A program made the translations under genes and the position numbers. The notes beneath the pieces are model-generated. The model was not told the origin of the DNA. It was given only the letters and a program-made list of their open reading frames with translations, and did not search any database. From an uncultured Thermodesulfobacteriota bacterium (GTDB lineage: Bacteria > Desulfobacterota > B13-G15), in assembly GCA_964480925.1 (NCBI GenBank), contig CAYZRR010000073.1:2242-66241 (forward strand): a DNA stretch of 64,000 nt. The letters are read 5' to 3'. Position 1 is the first letter of the stretch. The number at the start of each line of letters is the position of its first letter. Below are positions 61,428-61,930 of this stretch, piece by piece.

Positions 61428-61930
61428 CTCTCAGCGTGGGAAGAGTCGCTGACCGATTACCTTACTATCACTGCGTTCACCCAACAATTTTGCAATCTTT
61501 TTGAGACGAGTGTGTTCTAAAACCGACCATGCCACTGGTTTCAGCCAATATGTGTGAAAGCGTGCAGGAGTGTAGAAGTTGTTCTTTTAAGGGCGAACAT
61601 CCCTGTGAGCCTAAGTTTTTTTGTGTTATGGGAGGGTGAACCTCTGGTGAGCCCAAAATGATGTGCTGGGTGCAGAGTGCGATGTGTGGTTGTTAAGCAC
61701 CGAAAATTTTCGGCAGTGCGAGAGCAATGCCCTCCAAAACTACTTACCATTCGCCGCTCGGCTACTCGCCAATCGCTACTCGCCGCTGTTTCCCGACCTG
61801 CCGATTTGCCTTCCTCACGATTTGCCGATAATTTCAGTTTGTCCTAAAATTGCTGCATGTAAAAGGAAGGATTGTAGGACATCTGAACTTTTCATGACGA
61901 TTAGAAAAATCTTTGAAGGGTGGTGCGAAC
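61428..61930. promoter_or_regulatory. Atypically long (503 bp), GC-richer divergent intergenic region between pglZ and the repeat-protein gene
   Basis: Contains a perfect palindrome CCGAAAATTTTCGG (~61700-61713), GCTACTCGCC x2 (~61762 and ~61777), CGATTTGCC x2 (~61801 and ~61820), and GTGAGCC x2. Confidence 0.5.

Follow-up and report, generated by a model that had tools for sequence, protein, structure and literature searches.

A dispersed mosaic REP/BIME-like repeat in the divergent spacer between pglZ and a TPR/HEAT-like repeat gene of a BREX locus

Near the end of the window, by which we mean the whole 64,000-nt stretch of DNA analyzed here, a divergent intergenic spacer separates pglZ on the minus strand from a gene for a TPR/HEAT-like repeat protein on the plus strand (Table 1). 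The gene pglZ is part of BREX, a multi-gene phage-exclusion defense system. The spacer is 503 nt long if pglZ starts at GTG 61427 and 512 nt long if it starts at ATG 61418. The latter start is preferred, because it is preceded by AGGTGA and because homologues also begin MPQHS...; the PglZ N-terminus MPQHSNSGVLKN is common to the homologues P0003, P0004, P0006-9, and P0011. An initial annotation had singled out the spacer as unusually long and GC-rich in a window whose other spacers span 0-90 bp, and as compositionally distinct from AT-rich flanking coding sequence. It is indeed GC-richer than the window (46.9% vs 41.2%), and its part at 61631-61840 reaches 52.9%, compared with 35.8% for the other intergenic DNA of the window. 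However, the coding DNA immediately flanking it has 40-43% GC and is not markedly AT-rich, and the window also holds gaps of 501 bp (58485-58985, just downstream of pglZ), 179 bp, and 146 bp. The first of these (~500 bp, GC 33.5%) is non-coding and lies directly 3' of pglZ, where homology to the related contig L001 stops 27 nt past the stop codon; bracketed by two long gaps, pglZ resembles an island remnant.

Table 1. Features of the spacer, of its repeat element, and of the flanking genes, in window coordinates
Feature	Position	Strand	Basis and remarks
pglZ	58986-61418	-	810 aa from ATG 61418; Pfam PglZ, E = 1.4e-18; AGGTGA ribosome-binding site at 61424-61429
pglZ-proximal block, presumed pglZ promoter and 5' UTR	61419-61526	-	Conservation; promoter role presumed
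Dispersed mosaic REP/BIME-like intergenic repeat, ~315 nt	~61527-61840	- (same strand as pglZ)	Covariance model, shared copies in other contexts
GGCTCAC...GTTCRCCCT(CCCA) end module, two degenerate tandem copies	61590-61654	-	Source of the GTGAGCC pair
GCACNNN 7-nt array	61660-61686	-	3-4 units in the window, 3-8 in other copies
GCTTAACAA, the element's most conserved motif	61690-61698	-	Invariant in the 12 aligned copies of alignment A5
Palindrome CCGAAAATTTTCGG	61700-61713	both	Family consensus CCGAAAAATTTCGG; first two bases overlap the hairpin 3' arm
REP-like hairpin module GGAG-GGCATTGC-TCTC-GCACTGCC	61712-61735	-	One T.C mismatch in the window copy
RGCGAWT 7-nt array	61740-61784	-	Source of the GCTACTCGCC pair; TRF period 7 at 61761-61783
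GGCAAATCG-type units	61785-61829	-	Source of the CGATTTGCC pair; also part of the L008 copy, which sits in another intergenic region
Promoter-like TTGCCG-17-TAAAAT, sigma-70-like, for the repeat gene	61822-61850	+	Consensus match only, 9/12
TPR/HEAT-like repeat protein gene	61931-64000	+	Runs off the window

PglZ has close homologues in hot-spring metagenomes. The closest are found on contigs L001 (91%) and L002-L005 (81%), where pglZ closes a BREX operon with the order brxC, pglX methyltransferase gene, 654-656-aa gene, 3-nt gap, pglZ. Homology to L001/L002 ends at window position 61384, no more than ~5 codons into the shorter pglZ of these contigs. A second group of homologues has the long N-terminus, an opposite-strand cassette between a 648-aa gene and pglZ, and a divergent spacer of 197-390 bp upstream of pglZ. 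This cassette (HicA toxin, 113-147-aa partner, DUF6941, TPR gene) splits the BREX operon between the 648-662-aa gene and pglZ in one sub-lineage (L006 6295-7803, L008 6292-7760, L007 891-1622, and L040 2639-5564) and is missing from L001-L005. The repeat protein of the window is an expanded relative of the product of the small TPR gene divergent from pglZ in L006/L008: by repeat expansion it has grown to >690 aa in the window, compared with 71-84 aa in L006/L008 (L006 7549-7803), and it has an acidic, tryptophan-rich insert (...DEWVDYVWFEDIWVEDEWIDDEQ...). The pglX region of this BREX family consists of two ORFs, for a ~652-aa MmeI-type methyltransferase and a ~650-aa protein without a Pfam domain (L001 2054-5997, L006 1910-6287). 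A further PglZ homologue, 69% identical and with the long N-terminus, is encoded on L032 (243-3504) and L033 (408-3633). Its gene lies 31 nt downstream of one for a class-II glutamine amidotransferase and is followed by a very large glycoside-hydrolase-like gene; these contigs reach only ~1.1-1.2 kb upstream of pglZ and show no other BREX gene.

The break in homology at the pglZ start, together with the 654-656-aa gene that precedes pglZ by 3 nt in L001-L005, is what would be expected if the spacer were the decayed remains of this BREX gene, left by a deletion. However, blastn and tblastx show no similarity between the spacer and that gene. Furthermore, contig L040 from a near-identical strain continues past the window end with HicA and then, beyond the opposite-strand cassette, an intact 662-aa homologue of the gene on the pglZ strand, so the spacer is not the remnant of a deleted BREX gene, and pglZ here possesses an upstream region of its own. 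The repeat element described below and two conserved promoter-proximal blocks also account for the full length of the spacer. This origin was therefore rejected as hardly credible.

A small protein gene in the spacer was likewise rejected, in agreement with the initial annotation, which had seen no convincing ORF: Pfam gives no match to any short ORF of the spacer, and indels of 7 and 8 nt among orthologous spacers disrupt every reading frame, so the spacer is non-coding. It consists of three parts, which differ in their homology. Beyond the pglZ-proximal ~80 nt, and up to 61713, it has 85% identity to L007, the entire spacer up to 61853 aligns with L031, and 61629-61834 also matches another intergenic region in L006/L008, that separating the genes for the pglX methyltransferase and the 648-aa protein. 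If the element were taken out, ~200 nt of spacer would be left, compared with 197-240 nt in L006/L008, which are without the element at that site. Three independent contigs bear out the spacer along with its two junctions.

The palindrome, the GCTACTCGCC and CGATTTGCC direct repeats, and the GTGAGCC pair are all contained in a single ~315-nt element that recurs elsewhere. A 28-nt degenerate search pattern taken from the element core was run on metagenome and viral contigs. It was found in 21 metagenome contigs and in none of the viral contigs, and a viral origin of the element was rejected on that account. Three of the 21 contigs (L036, L038, and L040) represent strains of the locus in the window, while the others carry the element at unrelated places. 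Indeed, it occupies at least eight distinct intergenic contexts among housekeeping genes (L035-L055), with neighbors encoding DprA, an FAD oxidoreductase, RecN, a GFO/IDH oxidoreductase, ArsA, IlvC, SelB, YqeY, DciA, a GAF histidine kinase, and a glucoamylase. The length, GC content, palindrome, and direct repeats that had been taken as marks of this particular locus thus all belong to a repeat dispersed among unrelated housekeeping genes. A covariance model built from 12 copies of the element scores 113.9 bits at 61644-61751 and detects several copies per contig on some other contigs; neither self-blast nor the covariance model with its filters off detects a further copy in the 64-kb window. 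As many as 5-6 hairpin modules occur on a single 4-14-kb contig (metagenome contigs only), against one copy in the window. The part at 61527-61614 is also present in the second copy on L041, near ilvC, and the window element therefore spans ~61527-61840. Scanning of ~20 neighboring proteins revealed no transposase (RAYT / IS200/IS605-like, Y1), and neither a target-site duplication nor a clean empty site could be defined for the element.

Several further traces of the element were noted. A second, degenerate copy directly follows the stop codon of the TPR repeat gene at L040 4879-4990 (~64153-64264 in window coordinates, past the window end) and at L048 1626-1739; direct copies thus flank the gene on both sides, the degenerate one being oriented like the spacer copy. 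The two ORFs of the pglX region in L006/L008 are separated by a 470-nt insert, in which a further element copy and an antisense ORF of 61 aa are found. L006 (~7870-7900), L008, and L034 are without the element upstream of pglZ, yet carry there GCACCGAAAATTT(C), which matches 13 nt of the element core in inverted orientation and may have been left by an older insertion. Finally, L011 (Armatimonadota MAG SKYB17) contains weak traces of the element family at 13699-13787 and 19140-19160, namely a GCACNNN array and 21 nt that match GGCTGAAACCAGTGGCATGG, which hint at the home phylum of the repeat.

The element is a mosaic of modules. On the pglZ strand it begins with an optional start module, GGGAGGGCGAGGCTCCTGCCGAGCC, followed by GGCAAATCG-type units, RGCGAWT 7-nt units (3-11 in other copies of the element), TTTT(C)T, the hairpin module, GAAAAATTTCGG, the invariant GCTTAACAA, GCACNNN units (3-8), and optional end modules GGCTCAC...GTTCGCCCTCCCA. 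Two weaker copies in alignment A6 deviate from GCTTAACAA. The GTTCGCCCTCCC end of the end module is the inverted complement of the GGGAGGGCGA start that some copies have. Inverted ends of the form GGGAGGGCGA ... TCGCCCTCCC are present in L006, L008, L041, and L052 and incomplete in the window, L037, L044, and L054. The repeats described by the initial annotation fit into this architecture. Both direct-repeat pairs exist as reported, although their spacing differs from the 15 and 19 bp given: the copies of GCTACTCGCC start at 61761 and 61775, 14 nt apart, and those of CGATTTGCC at 61802 and 61818, 16 nt apart. GTGAGCC does recur, at 61605 and 61647. The palindrome corresponds to the A/T tract behind the hairpin, its first CC also being part of the 3' arm. 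The GCTACTCGCC 10-mers are not operator half-sites but units of the period-7 tandem array detected by TRF.

The perfect palindrome is present at the position where it had been annotated and has operator-like geometry. BrxR repressors bind inverted repeats. These WYL-domain repressors are known to control BREX loci (PMC9122601, PMC9122589), and here the palindrome lies between two divergent genes; moreover, its half-sites CCGAAA/TTTCGG recur across many copies of the element. It could be a dimeric transcription-factor operator, with the direct repeats as additional sites, that regulates pglZ and the repeat gene specifically. Against this, the same sequence is found among unrelated housekeeping genes, no regulator gene adjoins the spacer in either the window or L040, the direct repeats belong to tandem arrays with 7-nt units, and the relatives L006, L008, and L034 do without the element upstream of pglZ. 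The symmetry itself is not conserved either: it holds at 7/7 pairs only in the window, L036, L038, and L040, and at 3-6/7 pairs in 12 other versions (among them CCGAAAAATTTCAG and CCAAAAAATTTCGG), where no compensating second change restores it; orthologous and paralogous copies alike have lost it. Nor is such a palindrome unusual for this DNA, since the window holds 8 perfect 14-bp palindromes vs an expected 5.5 +/- 1.9 under a first-order Markov model; for the 512-nt stretch alone, 0.03 would be expected. We consider a locus-specific operator quite unlikely, and infer that the palindrome is not a BREX-specific one. The palindrome and repeats are thus no evidence for a dedicated BREX regulator, and a false lead is removed. 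The A/T-rich near-palindrome CCGAAA..TTTCGG is nevertheless partly kept across the element family, and a protein that recognizes the whole family through it is conceivable.

The part of the element that is conserved as a structure is the hairpin. Its family form is GGAG-GGCAGTGC-TCCT-GCACTGCC, with an 8-bp stem and a TCCT loop. In a set of 22 hairpin variants, pairing holds in 88.6% of cells, compared with 79% in shuffles (reached in 0/500), and 16 cells are changed on both sides (1/500 shuffles). Pairs 7-22, 8-21, and 10-19 change on both sides (e.g. UA:9 GC:8 UG:3 CG:1), and the central pair 9-20 is often mismatched. In the 5' foot, GGAG/GAAG, G1 and A3 are invariant and G4 is nearly so, in a set of variants collected by a pattern that fixed part of this foot. 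On the pglZ-sense strand, G.T wobbles outnumber A.C by 13 to 3, a bias that suggests that the hairpin is of importance when this strand is single-stranded, as DNA or as RNA. Variants are clustered in alternating orientation in L044 (3783-3981), L052, and L054, while in the window copy one hairpin is accompanied by a degenerate inverted GGGCTCAC...CCCTCCCA module. An integron attC site was also considered, as GCTTAAC fits RYYYAAC, and was rejected: there is no GTTRRRY partner on the same strand, and the contexts are housekeeping genes.

The initial annotation proposed regulated divergent promoters. The region is indeed divergent and non-coding, and it contains a conserved promoter-like site, but the proposed locus-specific regulation did not hold up. 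In a comparison of spacers, the promoter-like site and the pglZ-proximal ~80 nt are kept, whereas the symmetry of the palindrome is not. The promoter-like site for the repeat gene, TTGCCG-17-TAAAAT, is conserved in all orthologous spacers recovered (L031, L036, L038, L040, L046, L047, and L048), and in L047/L048 the ribosome-binding site and ATG of the repeat gene follow it after ~20 nt. Its -35 hexamer falls inside the terminal unit of the element. On the other side, 61419-61496 is 77% conserved with L006/L008, which are without the element here, and is kept across the second group of homologues; L007, L031, and L047 align over the whole pglZ-proximal block (61419-61526), in which GCAAAATTGTT is conserved at 61483-61493. 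No convincing sigma-70 promoter for pglZ was found in the spacer; of the weak candidates, TTGTTG-N17-TAAGGT (61459-61487) has a poorly conserved -10 hexamer. The block probably holds the pglZ promoter and leader, because it is conserved even where the element is absent, and both it and the TTGCCG-17-TAAAAT site are plausible control sequences. The BREX locus of Bacillus cereus is reportedly transcribed in two units, the second of which begins with pglZ (work of Goldfarb et al. from 2015), so that a separate pglZ promoter would be unsurprising.

The initial annotation had also considered that the region might encode a structured small RNA, and suggested an Rfam scan. No Rfam family matches at gathering score in the window, and the only match in 61300-62050 at E <= 10 is a spurious snoRNA (E = 7.9). 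The spacer shows no excess folding energy over shuffled sequences (z = +0.5 on both strands), and the consensus fold of the 110-nt core amounts to -10 kcal/mol with essentially just one short hairpin, the covarying one. A related possibility is that the element acts as a transcribed cis-acting RNA module, that is, as a 5'-UTR, intercistronic, or 3'-UTR hairpin that affects stability, termination, or translation of neighboring mRNAs, and that it here forms part of a long pglZ leader. Such a role would agree with the covariation and wobble bias of the hairpin, and with the placement of the element, which is co-directional with the downstream gene in 7/8 distinct contexts and often starts 2-15 nt past the stop codon of a co-directional upstream gene. 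In addition, a weak promoter-like site on the minus strand (61900-61871) would read through the element. However, this site is missing from L047/L048; the conserved pglZ-proximal block lies downstream of the element, and so probably does the pglZ promoter; and, besides the weak folding and the negative Rfam result, no intrinsic terminator is predicted and no T run follows the hairpin. We regard this role as unlikely.

The composition and flanks of the element bear on its origin. Contigs that carry it among housekeeping genes have 49-54% GC, compared with 41.2% for the window. The stretch 61150-64000 is 99-100% identical to L036/L040 and 59350-60800 is ~100% identical to L001, while the last ~300 nt of pglZ match neither (62-76%); beyond these stretches, L001 and L036/L040 share nothing else with the window. 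The pglZ gene is accordingly a mosaic of L001-like and L040-like DNA, with breakpoints near 59300 and 60800-61150, which reflects natural recombination or else a chimera created in metagenome assembly. Spacer and repeat gene thus belong to one block that moves between genomes, which explains the foreign-looking composition of this block. The element is native to genomes of ~50-54% GC, the lineage from which L041, L044, L045, L052, and L054 stem, and most likely reached the 41%-GC window together with BREX DNA. A repeat that travels with defense-island DNA into a genome of different base composition could mark horizontal transfer and serve strain typing.

We consider it likely that what had appeared as an unusually long control region is an ordinary divergent promoter region of ~200 bp in a rearranged BREX locus that was enlarged by one ~315-nt dispersed mosaic repeat, an element whose identity, dispersal, mosaic build, and covarying hairpin are matters of direct observation. 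The element would be a non-autonomous, selfish repeat of the REP/BIME or MITE kind, presumably copied by an enzyme whose gene lies elsewhere, with a single-stranded hairpin as intermediate, and the variable copy number of the flanking 7-nt arrays would be as expected from slippage. Locally, its main effect would be to push the divergent core promoters apart, and the -35 hexamer of the repeat-gene promoter may come from it. The co-directionality and the strand-biased wobbles, however, could both point to an action in RNA rather than to pure selfishness. A more far-reaching and doubtful idea is that the element represents an undescribed REP-like family of an uncultured thermophilic lineage, in which the 7-nt arrays serve as slippage-prone, tunable spacers and the near-palindrome and GCTTAACAA are bound by a protein of the host or by a transposase protein, and which, having moved with BREX DNA, sets the spacing of the pglZ and TPR promoters and supplies the -35 hexamer of the TPR gene. 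If so, changes in repeat number would alter the expression of the defense gene.

Elements of comparable design are found in several other bacteria. Cyanobacterial STRR sequences, reportedly described by Mazel et al. in 1990, are tandem 7-nt repeats in intergenic DNA; the present element shares intergenic 7-nt arrays with them, but its units differ and sit in a larger conserved element, and its host is not cyanobacterial. Pneumococcal BOX elements have boxB units of ~45 nt, far longer than the 7 nt seen here, belong to another host phylum, and have no sequence similarity to the element. They are nevertheless alike in being modular, with the structure boxA-(boxB)n-boxC, intergenic, variable in their internal tandem modules, and often located upstream of genes (PMC3049150); BOX elements have been reported to influence the expression of neighboring genes (PMC3049150). 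MITEs such as the Correia elements of Neisseria (PMC3184786) are likewise non-coding, dispersed, and 100-300 nt long, and can add promoter hexamers to adjacent genes. In contrast to these, the element has terminal inverted repeats in some copies only, with one end missing in the window, and no target-site duplication was found for it. The BrxR operators of BREX loci (PMC9122601, PMC9122589) share with the spacer an inverted repeat in a control region; however, no brxR is nearby, and the palindrome of the element also occurs at non-defense loci and is not conserved in its symmetry. A BrxR-type operator reading thus fails both on conservation and on the missing regulator gene.

Further parallels are with the REP/BIME/REPIN sequences of Enterobacteria and Pseudomonas (PMC3479197, PMC3116915, PMC3337134), with which the element has in common a short imperfect hairpin that tolerates a central mismatch. 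Both the element and REP/BIME are extragenic, dispersed among housekeeping genes, and mosaic. The 4-nt 5' foot, GGAG here and GTAG in E. coli (PMC3479197), and the alternating orientation of hairpins in some clusters may be additional parallels. The sequence of the element is unrelated, however, and it adds two 7-nt arrays and a longer non-palindromic conserved core; moreover, the window copy is a single hairpin with only a degenerate inverted partner, and no RAYT was found among the neighbors scanned. The element thus resembles REP/BIME as well as BOX, having the stem-loop and the extragenic dispersal of REP sequences, and may belong to the REP class. With it, a family of REP/BIME-like mosaic repeats is on record for uncultured hot-spring bacteria, where such elements have been little described, and its GGAG foot and tolerated mismatch suggest that a RAYT-like enzyme is worth seeking in the source genomes.
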